This document shows positions 211-56,952 of a DNA stretch of 64,000 bases, one piece after another. Each line of letters starts with the position of its first letter. Within the stretch, counting starts at the first letter, position 1. A program made the translations under genes and the position numbers. Below the pieces are notes generated by a model, which saw only the letters and a list, made by a program, of their open reading frames with translations, was not told where the DNA came from and ran no database searches. Source of the stretch: Minisyncoccota bacterium (GTDB lineage: Bacteria > Patescibacteriota > Minisyncoccia > Phycocordibacterales > SBAW01); the NCBI GenBank assembly GCA_035546575.1, contig DASZWN010000001.1:212875-276874 (forward strand). Reading direction: 5' to 3'.

Positions 211-383
211 TTTAACACTTCTGAAACGGACAAGAGACGAGCTTGGCTTTCGGTCGCACTTTGCCGTCGCAAAGTTCGCCTGCAGCCCCGGCTCGCGGCC
301 CCACCAGTGTGGGGCATCGCTGTGCCGTTCAAGTCCCTTTGCAAGCAAAATTGTTTGCTTGCAACTCTCGCTTACGTAACAAA

Positions 384-405
384 AAAGCCCCGAAGGGCTT
401 TTATT
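384..405. terminator. Bidirectional intrinsic terminator-like hairpin (GCCCCGAAGGGGC flanked by A/T runs)
   Basis: aaaaaaGCCCCgaagGGGCttttatt directly downstream of the minus-strand tRNA-Asp. Confidence 0.5.
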
Positions 406-410
406 GTTCG

Positions 411-486
411 TGCGCGAGAGACGGGACTTGAACCCGCAACCTCTGCCGTGACAGGGCAGCGCTCTAACCAGTTGAGCTACTCCCGC
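411..486 (-). tRNA. tRNA-Asp (anticodon GTC)
   Basis: Reverse complement folds as cloverleaf: acceptor GCGGGAG/CTCTCGC, anticodon loop CTGTCAC, T-arm GGTTCAAGTCC. Confidence 0.85.
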
Positions 487-1050: not shown

Positions 1051-1116
1051 ACAGCTATAGTATACATCGTTAGTCTTTGGCGTTTTGGCCGTTTTTATTG
1101 TACTTTGTATCGATAA

Positions 1117-1189
1117 GCCGAAGTAGCTCAGATGGTAGAGCAACTCCATGGTAAGGAGTAGGTCGCCGGTTCGATTCCGGCCTTCGGCT
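1117..1189 (+). tRNA. tRNA-Thr (anticodon GGT)
   Basis: GCCGAAGTAGCTCAGATGGTAGAGC...anticodon loop ATGGTAA...GGTTCGATTCCGGCCTTCGGCT; perfect 7-bp acceptor. Confidence 0.85.
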
Positions 1190-1253
1190 CCCGCAAAAGT
1201 GGGGGCGCGTAAGCGTCCCGAGTTTTGCAAATCAAAAAGAATTTGTTTAACAA

Positions 1254-1326
1254 GCCGGAGTAGCTCAGTTGGTAGAGCGGCGGTATCGTAAACCGCAGGT
1301 CGCCGGTTCAATCCCGGCCTCCGGCT
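1254..1326 (+). tRNA. tRNA-Thr (anticodon CGT)
   Basis: GCCGGAGTAGCTCAGTTGGTAGAGC, anticodon stem GCGGT/ACCGC loop ATCGTAA, T-arm CCGGTTCAATCCCGG, acceptor 3' strand CTCCGGC. Confidence 0.85.
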
Positions 1327-1390
1327 CAAAAGAAAGAATTCCTGCCTTGTGCAGGAATTTTCTTTTGGCGGCCGGGATTGAACCGGGAGG
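1300..1390. repeat. Long imperfect inverted repeat (about 40-bp arms) spanning the tRNA-Thr(CGT) T-arm/3' end, centred on a terminator-like hairpin GAATTCCTGCcttgTGCAGGAATTttcttttgg
   Basis: 1303-1317 CCGGTTCAATCCCGG is mirrored by 1372-1386 CCGGGATTGAACCGG; inner hairpin 1336-1366. Confidence 0.5.
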
Positions 1391-1571
1391 GGTGAGAAAT
1401 CGCGGGGCGATTTCGCAAGACCTTTTGAGAGACTTTCGAAGAAAGTATCCAAAAGGTGTACTGCTCCTGTAAGGAGCGGGGAGGAACATGTGCCTCCCCG
1501 TGGAGGAATTCTTCAAAACCGTGGGTTTTGAAAGGCCGTCTTCAGTAGTATGCTACTGAAGACGGCCAGGA

Positions 1572-2474
1572 GTGAGATCCCGGCCTCCGGCTCAAGTGGA
1601 AAAGGAACACCTAGAAAAGCGTATCAAAGAGATAGAGGGCGCCATGACGGCGGCCGATTTTTGGAGCAACCCCGGGGAGGCCCAAAACATGATCAAAGAG
1701 CTGCAAGAGCTTAAGCTCCAGGCTGAAGGCGGCGGCAAGTACGACCTTGGCGGCGCCATTATGACAATCGTGGCCGGCGCGGGCGGAGACGATGCCGAGG
1801 ACTTTGCGCACATGCTCTTTGAGATGTATCGCAAATTTATCGAACGCTTTGGTTGGTCATACAAACTGCTTCACGAAAACCAGAACGACCATGGCGGCTA
1901 CCGCAACCTCTCAATCGAGATAGTAGGGAAGCGGGTGTACGGCACCCTCAAAAACGAATATGGAGTCCATAGGCTCGTGCGCATCTCGCCGTTTAACGCA
2001 AACCAAAAGCGCCAGACATCTTTTGTACTGGTGGAAGTATTGCCGGTGCTTGAGAAGGTGTCCGACATAGAGATCCCCGATGACGATTTGGAGATTACGG
2101 TGGCGCGCTCGGGCGGCCCCGGCGGGCAAAACGTCAACAAGCGCGAGACTGCGGTACGCGTGGTGCACAAGCCCACAGGTATCAGCGCGCACGTAGACGG
2201 CGAGCGTACGCAAGGTGCCAACAAAGAGAAGGCGCTCGCGATTGTCAAAGCAAAACTGCTCCACCAGATGGAAGAGGAGCGCAAAGAAAAGATTTCCGAC
2301 CTCTCGACAGCCTCCGGCAAGATAGAGTGGGGCAACCAGATCCGCTCCTATGTGCTCCACCCGTACAAACTGGTTAAAGACCACCGCACCGAGGTAGAGG
2401 TTCGCGATGCAGAGAGCGTGCTCGAGGGCAATATTGAGCCTTTCCTCCAAGGTGCAACGTCATTGACCGAATAG
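1572..2474 (+). CDS. prfB: Peptide chain release factor 2 (RF2), N-terminally short form; start uncertain (GTG 1572, GTG 1596 or ATG 1644)
   Basis: Conserved RF2 core: [16 protein letters not shown](SPF), [10 protein letters not shown](GGQ), WGNQIRSYV; no upstream CTT-TGA-C frameshift site and an in-frame TGA at 1557. Confidence 0.8.
1577..1594 (+). repeat. Exact 18-nt direct repeat of the tRNA-Thr(CGT) 3' end (ATCCCGGCCTCCGGCTCA; first copy 1311-1328)
   Basis: Identical 18-mer read directly from the sequence; the intervening 250 bp contains at least five perfect hairpins. Confidence 0.6.
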
Positions 2475-2527: not shown

Positions 2528-3052
2528 GTGCGCATAGTATTTATTTGCGGGATATGGACATTCCATAATCCTATCTGGGACAACCTTAGGGTGCCGCTTA
2601 AATCGCGATTCCCGCATGCTGCTATATACGAAGAGGAAGTCTGGTACTCTCCGTGGGAAACCGAGAAGATCAGAACGTTTGGCGACTCGATCGTGGAAAA
2701 GTATGACGACGGCGTTGATGTTCTGCTGATCGGACACAGTATGGGCGGCCTGGTCGCATGTGCCATTGCACCCCAGTTCAGTCATAGTCGCGTGCGTGGT
2801 ATCGCGACACTCTTTTCTGGACATACATTTTTTGGAGGCCTTTTTGCCAGAATCGCAGGAGTACCGCAGGAAAGCTCAATACCTATCATTTCGTTTCAGG
2901 CAAAAATCGATCAGATAGTGTGGTGGGGTACGCGCCACCCAAGAGCGGTTGCGCACGTAGATTTGCTCTCGGATCATCTCTTTGGTATGGCATACGTCAA
3001 GCGATATGGCGAAGTGGTTGCCAAAACCATAGAAGAAAAGCTCTTTATCTAG
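2528..3052 (+). CDS. Alpha/beta-hydrolase fold esterase/lipase-like protein (GHSMGG nucleophile elbow)
   Basis: AGGAGG SD 7 nt upstream of GTG; LLIGHSMGGLVA GxSxG motif; followed by strong terminator. Confidence 0.6.
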   Translation: MRIVFICGIWTFHNPIWDNLRVPLKSRFPHAAIYEEEVWYSPWETEKIRTFGDSIVEKYDDGVDVLLIGHSMGGLVACAIAPQFSHSRVRGIATLFSGHTFFGGLFARIAGVPQESSIPIISFQAKIDQIVWWGTRHPRAVAHVDLLSDHLFGMAYVKRYGEVVAKTIEEKLFI

Positions 3053-55785: not shown

Positions 55786-55870
55786 GGAGGGTTCGCATAG
55801 TGGTCTAGTGCGCACGCTTGGAAAGCGTGTGTGGGGCAACCCACCAGGAGTTCGAATCTCCTACCCTCCG
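55786..55870 (+). tRNA. tRNA-Ser (anticodon GGA), type II with long variable arm
   Basis: GGAGGGT acceptor, anticodon stem CACGC/GCGTG loop TTGGAAA, variable arm TGTGGGGCAACCCACC, T-arm AGGAGTTCGAATCTCCT, 3' ACCCTCCG. Confidence 0.85.
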
Positions 55871-55987
55871 CAAAATAATGAGCATGCGAATATATTTTGC
55901 GAGAGGGCACTACAGTACCAATGTACTGTAGTGGGAGATTCGAACGCCGGAGCGATGTTTCGCGAGCACGCGAAACCGTGAGGCGGT
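55871..55987 (+). repeat. 117-bp structured repeat unit, copy 1 (second copy 56777..56893, 3 substitutions, two of them compensatory in a hairpin)
   Basis: caaaataatgagcatgcgaatatattttgcgagagggcActacagtaccaatgtactgtagTgggagattcgaacgccggagcgatgtttcgcgagcacgcgaaaccg...; contains perfect hairpins CACTACAGTACcaatGTACTGTAGTG and GTTTCGCGagcaCGCGAAAC. Confidence 0.7.
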
Positions 55988-56032
55988 GCCCAGACAAAAC
56001 TTTTTGACGAAAAAGTTTTAGTCGCGGGCGAA

Positions 56033-56046
56033 CTCCTACCCTCCGC
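56033..56046 (+). repeat. Direct repeat of tRNA-Ser 3' end (CTCCTACCCTCCGC), copy 2 of 3 (copy 1 = 55858..55871 inside tRNA; copy 3 = 56940..56952)
   Basis: Exact 14-mer repeated; each extra copy preceded by degenerate T-loop-like sequence. Confidence 0.6.
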
Positions 56047-56171
56047 CCGAAGTTTTTAGTATCGGACGTATGCGGACGCCGATGGCTCCGATGTGACGTT
56101 AATGGCCAAAAAGAAATCCGCAGCCATATTTCAGACTGCGGAAATTCTGACGCCGGCGTCGTCATATTATG

Positions 56172-56609
56172 TTATGCGGCCGCGCGCAAACCTTCGAATA
56201 GCTTCTTGTTGAAGCGCTCCATGACACCGTGCAGCACGTGGCTCACCGGCGTGTCGCGGTCGAGGTGTACGGCTTCTTGCGCGAACGGGATCATGCCGAC
56301 CTGGATCGTGACTTCCGTGTGATCCATCTGTGGGTTGAGCGGAAGCAGACGAACATCGCGCACTTCCACTGGCCACGCCTTGTGCCACGAGTCCATGAGC
56401 GCCTGCTCGAGCTGGGCGACAATGCCGACGCATGTGGTCGACGCGACCTTTTCGCGGCCGGAGAGCGAGTAATGGATCTCGTCCTTGTACTCGTCGGCGA
56501 CCCACTTGCGATTGTGGTCGTCCTCGCTTCGCGGCTCACTGCAAAGCGCCGACTTGAATGCCTCGATGATAATTCTTCCATTGATGGGCTTCGAGAGATG
56601 GATTTTCAT
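56172..56609 (-). CDS. Hypothetical protein (145 aa) located between tRNA-Ser 3'-end repeats
   Basis: AGGAAGGA SD 8 nt before ATG at 56609; no recognised motif. Confidence 0.5.
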   Translation of the reverse strand: MKIHLSKPINGRIIIEAFKSALCSEPRSEDDHNRKWVADEYKDEIHYSLSGREKVASTTCVGIVAQLEQALMDSWHKAWPVEVRDVRLLPLNPQMDHTEVTIQVGMIPFAQEAVHLDRDTPVSHVLHGVMERFNKKLFEGLRAAA

Positions 56610-56776
56610 AGCCTGTCCTTCCTTTCATCTGGCCGACTTCCGATGTGGAAAGTACCGCTGTTGCCCAACTAAGTCAACTAAAGTCGGCCGATGTCGATGG
56701 CTCGATTAGCTGCTCCAAAGCCTACCTAGAAACCCTTACGGTGTCTCACCGAGAAAGTTCGAACTGCCAACAGCCC

Positions 56777-56893
56777 GCAAAATAATGAGCATGCGAATAT
56801 ATTTTGCGAGAGGGCGCTACAGTACCAATGTACTGTAGCGGGAGATTCGAACGCCGGAGCGATGTTTCGCGAGCACGCGAAACCGCGAGGCGG
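56777..56893 (+). repeat. 117-bp structured repeat unit, copy 2, preceded by a degenerate tRNA-Ser 3' half (56735..56775)
   Basis: Near-identical to 55871..55987; hairpin stem changes A-T to G-C pair (CGCTACAGTAC...GTACTGTAGCG). Confidence 0.7.
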
Positions 56894-56939
56894 TGGCTAG
56901 CCCGAGGTGAGGGACGACGAACCGAGAGGCGAAGCCGAA

Positions 56940-56952
56940 TCCTACCCTCCGC
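56940..56952 (+). repeat. Direct repeat of tRNA-Ser 3' end (TCCTACCCTCCGC), copy 3
   Basis: 13/14 identity to tRNA 3' end; marks right edge of repeat-flanked segment. Confidence 0.55.

Follow-up and report, generated by a model that had tools for sequence, protein, structure and literature searches.

A 266-nt insertion between a tRNA-Thr gene and prfB, one of a widespread, apparently undescribed family of small non-coding tRNA-flank elements in Patescibacteria

Positions 1330-1595 of the window (the whole 64,000-nt stretch of DNA analysed here) are a clean insertion of 266 nt that separates tRNA-Thr(CGT) from the start codon of prfB. The insert is a member of a widespread, apparently undescribed family of small non-coding tRNA-flank elements in Patescibacteria. 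The arms of these elements copy the 3' end of the local tRNA, a hint that tRNA genes are targeted in an unknown way. In syntenic relatives the two genes touch. In alignment A3, four relatives (L029, L021, L005 and L030) show a 266-nt gap exactly between the tRNA 3' end and prfB, and in 15-17 relatives tRNA-Thr ends -1 to +6 nt from the prfB start codon. The terminator-like hairpin H0 came with the insertion, because it is missing in relatives. Some of the presence and absence among the relatives could be due to loss by repeat-mediated deletion and not to gain. The parts of the locus are listed below.

1116..1192, plus strand: tRNA-Thr(GGT), first of the tRNA pair, with no element behind it (ARAGORN, Rfam)
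1254..1327, plus strand: tRNA-Thr(CGT), the target tRNA (ARAGORN; Rfam 68.1 bits)
1311..1329, plus strand: direct repeat copy 1, from T-loop A58 to the tRNA 3' end, plus trailer CAA
1328..1366, plus strand: H0, terminator-like hairpin, AAAAGAAAGAATTCCTGC cttgt GCAGGAATTTTCTTTT
1367..1386, plus strand: left arm, repeating the local T-loop, T-stem and part of the acceptor 3' strand in inverted orientation
1387..1393, plus strand: core-1 5' junction GAGGGGT (family consensus RRGGGGT|CGGG)
1394..1477, plus strand: nested 84-nt module (core-4b) of three hairpins, the last with a UGUAA loop
1477..1500, plus strand: hairpin A of core-1, CGGGGAGG aacatgtg CCTCCCCG
1501..1511, plus strand: conserved single-stranded linker TGGAGGAATTC (consensus TGGAGGAAATTA; window copy 1 nt shorter)
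1512..1532, plus strand: hairpin B of core-1, TTCAAAACC gtg GGTTTTGAA, the best-conserved part of the family
1534..1567, plus strand: hairpin C, a perfect 15-bp stem at the position of the family's variable 3' module
1568..1576, plus strand: 3' junction AGGAGTGAG (family consensus GAGCAGTGAGAT)
1577..1595, plus strand: right arm, direct repeat copy 2, abutting prfB as the tRNA does in relatives
1596..2474, plus strand: prfB (RF2, 292 aa), with SPF and GGQ motifs, PCRF and RF-1 domains and a GTG start

The target tRNA-Thr(CGT), already called in the preliminary description of this DNA, is intact, and its 3' end is the first copy of an exact direct repeat, ATCCCGGCCTCCGGCTCAA (1311-1329 = 1577-1595). 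The repeat had been given as 18 nt and proves to be one longer, 19 nt. Since this 3' end exists in two copies, the tRNA is preserved. The T-arm is mirrored around the terminator-like hairpin (1328-1366), as had been noticed: 1303-1322 and 1367-1386 are inverted copies over 20 nt with 95% complementarity. The left arm has two pairing options: it can join the tRNA 3' half in a long hairpin with H0 at the tip, or join the right arm in a 12-bp closing helix. The four hairpins listed before lie at 1396-1414, 1463-1477, 1477-1500 and 1534-1567, and two more (1421-1456 and 1512-1532) had been overlooked. The folding energy of segment 1328-1600 is -138 kcal/mol, where shuffles give -88.5 +/- 5.2 (z = -9.6), and its minus strand has a folding z of -12.1 against shuffles.

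The preliminary description would have counted it against its own reading if relatives carried the same sequence as ordinary intergenic DNA. They carry none at all at the tRNA-Thr/prfB junction, and conservation of the hairpins is seen in other places, beside other tRNAs. Presence of the repeat in a second assembly could be followed in part. A Logan contig of SRR12170516 (L123) matches the window letter for letter from 1447 through prfB and so contains the second repeat copy; its reads are possibly shared with the window's metagenome-assembled genome (MAG). A second assembly of the element's left half was sought and not found.

The family was met with 45 times in metagenomes and MAGs. A single metagenome pattern scan gave 42 loci and MAGs gave 2 more; the scan pattern was fixed on hairpin B, so the diversity of that hairpin is under-sampled. 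The elements are about 110-270 nt long, lack an ORF and share a conserved, covarying core. An upstream tRNA or tmRNA lies 53-174 nt away on the same strand in 27 of the 39 non-redundant copies and on the opposite strand in none, and the targets of these 27 are 14 tRNA types plus tmRNA. The layout runs from the tRNA through a terminator-like hairpin, an inverted local T-loop/T-stem and the core to the local tRNA 3' end once more, in direct orientation. Within core-1 the order is GGGGT, hairpin A, a GGAGGAA linker, hairpin B (..AAACC GNG GGTTT..) and a variable 3' module. The window copy fits this definition (model R1, 61.6 bits, E = 4e-16, 1467-1536; arms at 1367-1386 and 1577-1595), and the family covariance model scores it as full length.

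These data bear directly on the origin of the repeat. A direct repeat from the T-loop to the 3' end of a tRNA is a hallmark of tyrosine-integrase islands, and it is present here; the preliminary description had proposed an att-site duplication left by a decayed element. The first half of that proposal stands, as an att- or target-type duplication does surround a structured insert. The decayed remnant does not, the insert being a full-length member, by the model, of an ORF-less family. That the two repeats are attL and attR of a larger integrase-encoding island decayed to 250 nt is thus very unlikely: the same short layout and core recur at 14 tRNA types plus tmRNA, an integrase remnant is found in 0/45 copies, and independent decay to the same 110-270 nt is implausible. 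The insert itself holds no integrase gene (266 nt without a conserved ORF), and no integrase-like ORF was confirmed in the window.

The arms follow the local tRNA closely. The direct repeat begins in the T-loop, ends 0-6 nt past the tRNA and is exact over up to 30 nt; the T-loop-to-end pattern of the window recurs in 20+ family members. Its length is variable: the exact match covers 7-30 nt, and L043 reaches 83 nt. The left arm repeats the T-loop variant of the local tRNA exactly, in inverted orientation (e.g. GATTGAA/TTCAATC, ACTCGAA/TTCGAGT), and it also copies the tRNA trailer, which lies outside the mature tRNA. Its pairing with the real tRNA is better than that with the right arm. Cores of 60 nt are identical beside tRNA-Leu, tRNA-Phe and tRNA-Pro, with arms that match their own tRNA each time, and cores beside Lys, Trp and Gly are 1-2 edits apart. 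The family is mobile, because identical cores adjoin different tRNAs with matching arms. Tandem or nested copies occur in L100, in L043 (the perfect 83-nt repeat) and in the window's nested module. Some copies lie away from tRNAs: L120 is flanked by a 16-19-nt duplication of its own, and L082, L101, L103 and L115 show no clear duplication. Most tRNAs have no element.

Structure is conserved along with sequence. Of 733 pair cells, 97.4% are paired and 95 carry compensatory double changes, values reached in 0/500 shuffles. This strong covariation would speak for a structured RNA, yet G-U pairs occupy only 2/733 pair cells. Strand assignment by G-U counts was uninformative (5 vs 2). The near-absence of G-U and the copying of the trailer by the left arm hint at the DNA level. 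In sister families, H1 hairpins lie within the left arms, and the acceptor-like part of the left arm is separated by a hairpin from the T-stem-like part, which gives a tRNA-like three-way junction.

With moderate confidence, 1330-1595 can be read as a copy of a small, ORF-less insertion family of tRNA and tmRNA flanks whose hairpins fold and insert at the T-loop with the help of an enzyme acting in trans. The element would move as DNA, and the enzyme would be supplied from elsewhere. Insertion would be site-specific, with junctions at both ends of the T-loop, and the arm pair may form a folded attachment site, a duplex imitating the 3' half of the tRNA gene. Known parallels for such a site are integron attC cassettes and phage CTXphi, whose sites are single-stranded hairpins. 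Neither in the window nor in linkage with the elements could a recombinase, transposase or reverse transcriptase be identified, and motif matches were false leads; a local search of the window for enzyme motifs gave one ABC ATPase and unannotated ORFs only. No excised form or circle junction was seen. Hairpin attachment alone leaves the new tRNA-specific arms and the new H0 at each tRNA unexplained, and an extra step would be needed, either module exchange at conserved T-loop-like junctions or copying from the target. Moreover, the conserved unpaired nucleotides and the strict sense orientation would suit an expressed RNA equally well.

Movement through RNA would account for several of these features. 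In a SINE-like scheme, the element, co-transcribed with the tRNA, would anneal through a T-loop-like 3' end, GAGAUUCC, where the T-loop of a tRNA gene is nicked, and would be copied by target-primed reverse transcription; a staggered second nick would make the variable duplication, and snap-back priming from the terminator hairpin would make the inverted left arm. Duplications of 7-30 nt exact, and of 83 nt in L043, are as expected in target-primed retrotransposition, the arms are re-templated at every tRNA, and orientation is always sense. In the right arm, the T-loop half belongs to the element and meets local sequence at T-loop position 59/60 in a microhomology-like manner. The scheme is nevertheless unlikely. 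No reverse transcriptase was found near any copy, and the near lack of G-U in strongly covarying helices is unusual for a structure-selected RNA intermediate. In addition, the window's H0 is not local sequence and H1 lies inside sister left arms, and simple snap-back yields neither.

A functional non-coding RNA or processing signal is similarly improbable. Here the arm helix would mimic the neighbouring tRNA in its T-stem and the inner part of its acceptor stem, tRNA-processing enzymes such as RNase P and RNase Z would cut the polycistronic transcript and release the core RNA, and in the window the cut would make the 5' end of a leaderless prfB mRNA. The core is indeed conserved, with invariant unpaired nucleotides and compensatory helices. 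Copies sit within transcription units, where only a few nt separate the right arm from the next tRNA or gene start; prfB is leaderless in the clade and the right arm keeps its junction; and the three-way junction of the sister families' left arms is tRNA-like. Against this, the closing helix of the window copy is only 12 bp with GGCU unpaired, a poor substrate mimic for RNase Z or RNase P, and an exact mimic was judged unconvincing for this copy. The left arm reverse-complements the trailer and T-loop, which a tRNA mimic does not need, and prefers the real tRNA over the right arm. Identical cores at different tRNAs and nested copies require mobility in any case, and most tRNAs do without the element.

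Several known RNA classes and elements were also compared with the insert and set aside. The preliminary rejection of tmRNA holds: ARAGORN finds neither a tmRNA nor a permuted tmRNA, and Rfam gives only a 17-nt chance match on the other tRNA (E = 5.5). The Rfam scan that had been suggested for the hairpin segment matched no family; at Rfam 15 gathering thresholds only tRNAs pass in the window and 10 canonical loci, and E-value scans return chance miRNA or sRNA matches only, with no ribozyme or known RNA. The left arm is not the 5' half of a degenerate second tRNA, as its T-loop part reverse-complements the local T-loop variant. Nor is it a retrovirus-like primer-binding site, since it lacks the complement of the last acceptor nucleotides and CCA and includes the trailer. 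A retron or other RT-linked ncRNA was rejected as well, the neighbours being prfB and tRNAs, with no YxDD-containing ORF in the window. Regarding phage or plasmid origin, there was no pattern match in viral contigs and no BLAST match in phages or plasmids. The core sequence was found in no paper, a keyword search of the literature gave nothing relevant, and a genome-language-model preprint makes no mention of the element.

Among described systems, attC cassettes and CTXphi-type elements (IMEX) share an imperfect palindromic structured site of 60-160 nt, most of whose hairpin stands at one end of the insert after insertion and a short part at the other. Their helices are Watson-Crick only, and arrays are possible, as at the window's tRNA-Ser (site, ORFan gene, site). 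Unlike them, the present elements target the T-loop and 3' end of tRNA genes rather than attI or dif, lack the R''/R' consensus of attC (RYYYAAC / GTTRRRY), show no IntI and no XerCD link, and have stems that copy the local tRNA, most units being gene-free. An integron attC cassette proper was therefore rejected: the imperfect palindrome is present, but its arms end in TCGAAC(C) and GAGATTCC, and no intI was found in the window.

Islands and prophages in tRNA genes (tyrosine integrases, T-loop sublocation class) likewise make a direct repeat that starts in the T-loop and extends a few nt past the 3' end of the tRNA, keep the tRNA intact and also use tmRNA. They differ in that the elements here have no integrase or any ORF, measure only 110-270 nt, add an inverted target copy beside the tRNA, and place one core family at at least 14 tRNAs. 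Casposons and Cas1 spacer integration resemble them in site-specific insertion at the 3' ends of tRNA genes and in a long target or repeat duplication (14-37 bp), which arises when the two strands are attacked at staggered positions. However, there is no casposase, PolB or Cas1 here, the duplication varies from 14 to 83 nt, and the terminal inverted sequence is target-derived rather than element-borne.

MITEs, REPINs and class C group II introns are, like these elements, small, non-autonomous, hairpin-rich and multi-copy, and often lie just behind a terminator-like stem-loop; class C group II introns insert after terminator hairpins. Unlike MITEs, the elements here have no fixed short target duplication and no parent IS, and a MITE was rejected because the arms vary with the neighbouring tRNA and the duplication is long and variable (14-83 nt), not a fixed 2-10 bp. 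No RAYT link is known for them, in contrast to REPINs, and compared with group II introns they are far too small, without domain V or an Rfam match.

The window holds further elements of this kind. Removing the nested module at 1394-1477 restores the core-1 consensus, and its core-4b homologues are found at 1936-2020 of L040 and as stand-alone tRNA-flank elements in L043, L045 and L117. Three related elements lie elsewhere in the window:

230..411, minus strand: core-3 element behind tRNA-Asp (412-486, minus strand), related, with a different core
55872..56046, plus strand: element A (core-2), a related element behind tRNA-Ser(GGA) (55786-55871)
56780..56952, plus strand: element B, with its first ~121 nt ~97% identical to element A and a different 3' half

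The core-3 element has H0 at 383-402, an inverted acceptor copy, a hairpin and an inverted T-loop copy (325-338); its core ends at 241-259 and its right arm is decayed. Element A has a left arm at 55934-55945 and a right arm, a 14-nt repeat, at 56033-56046. Ahead of element B stands a pseudo tRNA 3' end, and behind it comes a third copy of TCCTACCCTCCGC. The space between elements A and B holds an ORFan gene (56172-56609, minus strand), which makes a cassette-like array at tRNA-Ser; homologues of this gene were sought and none was found. It is possible, and is offered only tentatively, that all of these form a class of unrecognised mobile non-coding elements in Patescibacteria. The class would have at least four core families with a common arm logic, core-4 apparently with a variant, 4b. 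Its members would re-template an inverted and a direct arm at each new tRNA, attach through the resulting hairpin, a duplex mimic of the 3' half of the tRNA gene, and be able to build integron-like cassette arrays such as the one at the window's tRNA-Ser.

If this targeting is real, a 110-270-nt non-coding unit lands at at least 14 tRNAs plus tmRNA with arms matching each. The insertion chemistry would then have to copy its target, or else a recombinase directed to the T-loop would have to be very general. Both routes would be of interest for mobile-element mechanisms and for programmable insertion tools. Patescibacteria have reduced genomes that are otherwise poor in classical transposons, and the family offers a handle on gene flow in them. 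For annotation, the elements would account for many partial tRNA fragments, long palindromes and assembly breaks by tRNA genes in MAGs of the candidate phyla radiation (CPR).

The start of prfB also deserves attention. The gene begins straight after the second repeat copy, close to where the preliminary description had placed its apparent start, and its GTG at 1596 aligns with the ATG or GTG of relatives. The 23-codon ORF noted before does exist (1488-1559, in the prfB frame, with TGA 1557-1559 between); the leader-peptide role proposed for it does not hold, as the ORF sits on core hairpins A and B and a 1-nt deletion breaks its frame relative to the family. This indel, GGAGGAATTC in the window vs GGAGGAAATTA in the family consensus, also rules against a protein-coding core, and the shifted frame means that conservation acts at the nucleotide and not the peptide level. 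A regulatory leader for RF2 autoregulation, with the ORF as leader peptide, stop-codon sensor or readthrough/frameshift device, could draw on its UGA stop, which is RF2-specific, in the prfB frame and 36 nt upstream of the start. Such a device is so improbable as to be nearly negligible: relatives have no leader or upstream ORF, hairpins A and B recur in elements at unrelated loci where the frame is not conserved, and prfB homology begins at GTG 1596. The programmed frameshift site (CUU-UGA-C) is absent, and the ORF that begins at 1488 shares frame 0 with prfB.

In the clade, prfB is leaderless and either abuts tRNA-Thr or lies 4-11 nt behind a -10 box. The right arm recreates the junction between tRNA 3' end and GTG, so prfB would still be releasable from the tRNA co-transcript, and such release would yield a near-leaderless prfB mRNA. 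A leaderless message starting 0-3 nt after a tRNA amounts to mitochondrion-like tRNA punctuation in a bacterium.

The junction between tRNA-Thr(CGT) and prfB, the gene for RF2, is occupied in the window by a structured insert (the Thr element), in the following setting:

1116–1192: tRNA-Thr(GGT) (ARAGORN, Rfam)
1254–1327: tRNA-Thr(CGT) (ARAGORN, Rfam)
1328–1366: terminator-like hairpin (H0), between the two copies of the tRNA 3'-end repeat

The exact 19-nt direct repeat ATCCCGGCCTCCGGCTCAA is found at 1311–1329 and again at 1577–1595, and an inverted copy of the tRNA-Thr(CGT) T-arm lies at 1367–1386 (20 nt, 95% complementarity). Six more hairpins besides H0 are all located between the two repeat copies. 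The repeated tRNA 3' end and the hairpin-dense segment before prfB, as given in the preliminary description, are confirmed, with a repeat of 19 rather than 18 nt. The folding energy of 1328–1600 is −138 kcal/mol, against −88.5 ± 5.2 for shuffled sequences (z = −9.6); the minus strand reaches z = −12.1. In the predicted fold, a 12-bp helix (1367–1378 with 1577–1588) encloses the entire segment. Logan contig L123 (run SRR12170516), which may share reads with the window MAG, is identical to the window from 1447 through prfB, repeat copy 2 included.

The 80 related loci retrieved with the RF2 protein are all from Patescibacteria (Paceibacteria/Adlerbacteria-like MAGs). Four of them (L029, L021, L005, L030) have the same tRNA pair with the prfB start codon directly abutting tRNA-Thr, and relative to these the window carries a single clean, gap-free insertion of 266 nt (alignment A3). 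BLAST against the 80 loci places homologous pieces of the insert next to tRNA-Thr in L019 and L015, with differing stem sequences. The earlier idea of an att-site duplication left by a decayed integrative element is right in part: the duplication stands, and the decayed island is unsupported.

Among the 56 relatives with a readable N-terminus, tRNA-Thr ends −1 to +6 nt from the prfB start in 15–17, and in about 28 a TAnnnT box (often TGnTATACT, a -10 box) ends 4–11 nt upstream of it. With a tRNA or a -10 box so near the start codon, prfB is leaderless in this clade. Many Paceibacteria have only 0–3 nt between the tRNA-Thr 3' end and the prfB start, as seen in the window (1577–1598) and in L002, L005, L006, L011, L016, L017, L019, L021, L026, L029, L030, L031 and L055. 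The window prfB starts at GTG 1596, immediately after repeat copy 2, and encodes a short RF2 (domains PCRF and RF-1); no frameshift site is present in it. Where prfB is tRNA-linked, its 5' end would come from tRNA 3' processing, in a manner resembling mitochondrial tRNA punctuation. A purely RNA-level role of the insert is possible: the arms form a tRNA-like helix at which RNase P or RNase Z could be guided to cut, and the 5' end of the leaderless message would thereby be kept here; however, tRNA mimicry is imperfect in the window copy, and mobility would still be needed. The 23-codon ORF at 1488 (same frame as prfB, terminated by TGA 1557), previously suggested as a possible leader peptide, overlaps conserved hairpins, and compared with other family members its frame is altered by an indel of 1 nt; it is not a leader peptide.

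The junction is an insertion hot spot. In the closest relative (L001, RF2 92% identical) it holds another insert of ~370 nt with a small ORF (2628–3000), and prfB there has its own -10 box. In L004 (1–126) the short insert has been reduced to a hairpin, AGGAGCGAGAT and the decayed remains of a right arm (GATCCTCCC); it probably arose by deletion from a member of the Thr-element family.

The anatomy of the element was derived from alignments A1 and A2. The order is: tRNA, often H0, left arm, a purine-rich junction ending in GGGGT, hairpin A, a linker (TGGAGGAAATTA), hairpin B (TTCAAAACC GTG GGTTTTGAA), a variable 3' module, and right arm. The left arm matches, exactly and in reverse complement, the T-loop variant of the local tRNA together with its 3' T-stem strand and some of its acceptor strand, often also its trailer; in every case it forms a single long hairpin with the tRNA 3' half and H0. 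The right arm is a direct copy of the local tRNA that begins at T-loop position ~59–61 and reaches 0–6 nt beyond the tRNA end; GAGAT, just before it, is element-borne. Type-2 3' modules of L090, L106, L112, L113, L117 and L109 share a recurrent TAGCGAAGCG insert, placed where the right arm copies the T-loop. The sequence GCGAAGC is known to form a DNA mini-hairpin of unusual stability.

A covariance model of the conserved centre, core-1 (R1), scores the window copy at 61.6 bits and also matches diverged copies, in which hairpin B carries compensatory changes, e.g. CTAAAAACC/GGTTTTTAG and TCGGAAACC/GGTTTCCGA. Across 42 distinct sequences, 97.4% of the 733 pair cells form pairs and 95 show changes on both sides, values attained by none of 500 shuffles. 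In alignment A4 (43 family members) only 2 of the 733 cells are G-U pairs, though the helices covary heavily; RNA families seldom show such scarcity, which hints at a constraint on the DNA or on both strands.

A search with a degenerate pattern covering linker and hairpin B yields 42 loci in metagenomes and none on viral contigs. After removal of duplicates, a same-strand tRNA or tmRNA ends 53–174 nt upstream in 27 of 39 copies, and in none of the 39 is it in the opposite orientation. The upstream genes are Thr, Leu, Ser, Met, Gln, Gly, Phe, Pro, Lys, Trp, Ile, Glu and Arg tRNAs and tmRNA, with Tyr added by the model search. Copies without a detected upstream tRNA are mostly truncated by contig ends or lie 3' of an intron-containing tRNA. 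Interrupted tRNA genes (L024 ~2700–2950, minus; L040 2060–2300, minus; L104, upstream of the element) carry ~190–230-nt inserts in the anticodon region that look like group I introns; an E-value scan of L040 gave no match to the Rfam group I model.

Five copies (L120, L115, L101, L103, L082) occupy non-tRNA sites: that of L120 lies inside a dehydrogenase-like gene, at the 3' end, and has a 16–19-nt duplication of its own, that of L115 lies between rplE and rpsN, and that of L101 lies 12 nt before an rplJ-like start. The L101, L103 and L115 copies (L101 3033–3103, minus; L103 8523–8593; L115 11782–11852) each closely precede a ribosomal protein gene and have a common left flank, TAATATAATTGAATCTGGAA, a fossil left arm that can also be read as a -10 box. 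Some non-tRNA copies may be a source of promoters or leaders.

Several observations speak for mobility. An identical 60-nt core is found at tRNA-Leu (L081), tRNA-Phe (L092) and tRNA-Pro (L095), and one 1–2 edits away at Lys, Trp, Gly and another Pro; the arms and H0 around these near-identical cores are wholly different, each matching its own tRNA. One tRNA bears two successive insertions (L100), and in L043 a perfect 83-nt repeat (tRNA 3' part, H0, left arm) flanks a 51-nt core on both sides. The window Thr element itself contains an 84-nt module nested between GGGGT and CGGGG, whose removal restores the consensus. This module belongs to a separate family, core-4, which in L043, L045, L040 and L117 stands alone between left and right arm after tRNA-Asp, tRNA-Met and tRNA-Arg; in its terminal hairpin the stems covary and the loop is always UGUAA. 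Core-4 copies are:

Window 1394–1477: module nested in the Thr element
L040 1936–2020: orientation opposite to its tRNA
L043 2516–2566
L045
L117

Two further families with the same arm layout, core-3 and core-2, follow tRNA-Asp and tRNA-Ser in the window:

230–411, minus strand: core-3 element, downstream of tRNA-Asp (412–486)
56172–56609, minus strand: ORFan gene (145 aa), flanked by two core-2 copies
~56758–56779: pseudo tRNA 3' end

After tRNA-Asp come H0, an inverted acceptor copy, a hairpin, an inverted T-loop copy and core-3 (..GAGCCGGGGCTGCAGGCGAA..GTGCGACCGAAAGCCAAGC). The right arm of the window copy is decayed; intact elements occur in L009, L030, L040 and L045, and the 14-nt repeat is intact in L009. 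The core-2 element also has a 14-nt repeat. Within 55786–56952 the tRNA-Ser 3' end is present in three copies: the first core-2 element is followed by the ORFan gene, the pseudo tRNA 3' end, a second element copy (~97% identical to the first over the initial ~121 nt) and the third tRNA-Ser 3' end. The 145-aa protein has no homologue among 5.8 billion proteins. The region is a cassette-like array, and its layout resembles an integron-like one placed at a tRNA. In the sister families, a conserved hairpin separates the acceptor-complementary and T-stem-complementary parts of the left arm.

The data show insertion beside tRNA genes that is site-specific, oriented and repeatedly used; the arms match the target, and the structured core is conserved. 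No Rfam family and no phage or plasmid record matches the element, and no paper on it was found in the literature. Like integrase islands and casposons it has a repeat of the tRNA 3' end; like integron cassettes and CTXphi it has a palindromic site that folds, and it forms arrays; and like MITEs it is small. Each of these, however, has a defining feature that the element lacks. We place it among the site-specific non-autonomous mobile elements as a new variant, and there is a substantial chance that its mechanism is new in kind.

The element probably moves in the form of DNA and would rely on an enzyme provided in trans. The inverted copy stops at ~position 53 and the direct copy begins at ~59–61, i.e. 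at both borders of the 7-nt T-loop, from which we infer an event centred on this loop. For tyrosine integrases of tRNA-targeting islands, the 7-nt T-loop is the overlap region. In a single-stranded circle (right arm, H0, left arm, core), the arms would fold into a duplex identical to the 3' half of the tRNA gene. A single strand exchange between circle and tRNA gene would then yield tRNA, H0, left arm, core, right arm and the original downstream DNA, the observed order; CTXphi and folded attC sites act in this manner. Such a folded circle would account for the foreign H0 in the window, downstream terminators that differ from H0, array formation and Watson-Crick-only stems. What it leaves unexplained is how a single core receives new arms at each tRNA. 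A target-copying step, by staggered cuts with snap-back synthesis or by reverse transcription, is a serious alternative. GCGAC and GAGCGA motifs are repeatedly present in all four cores.
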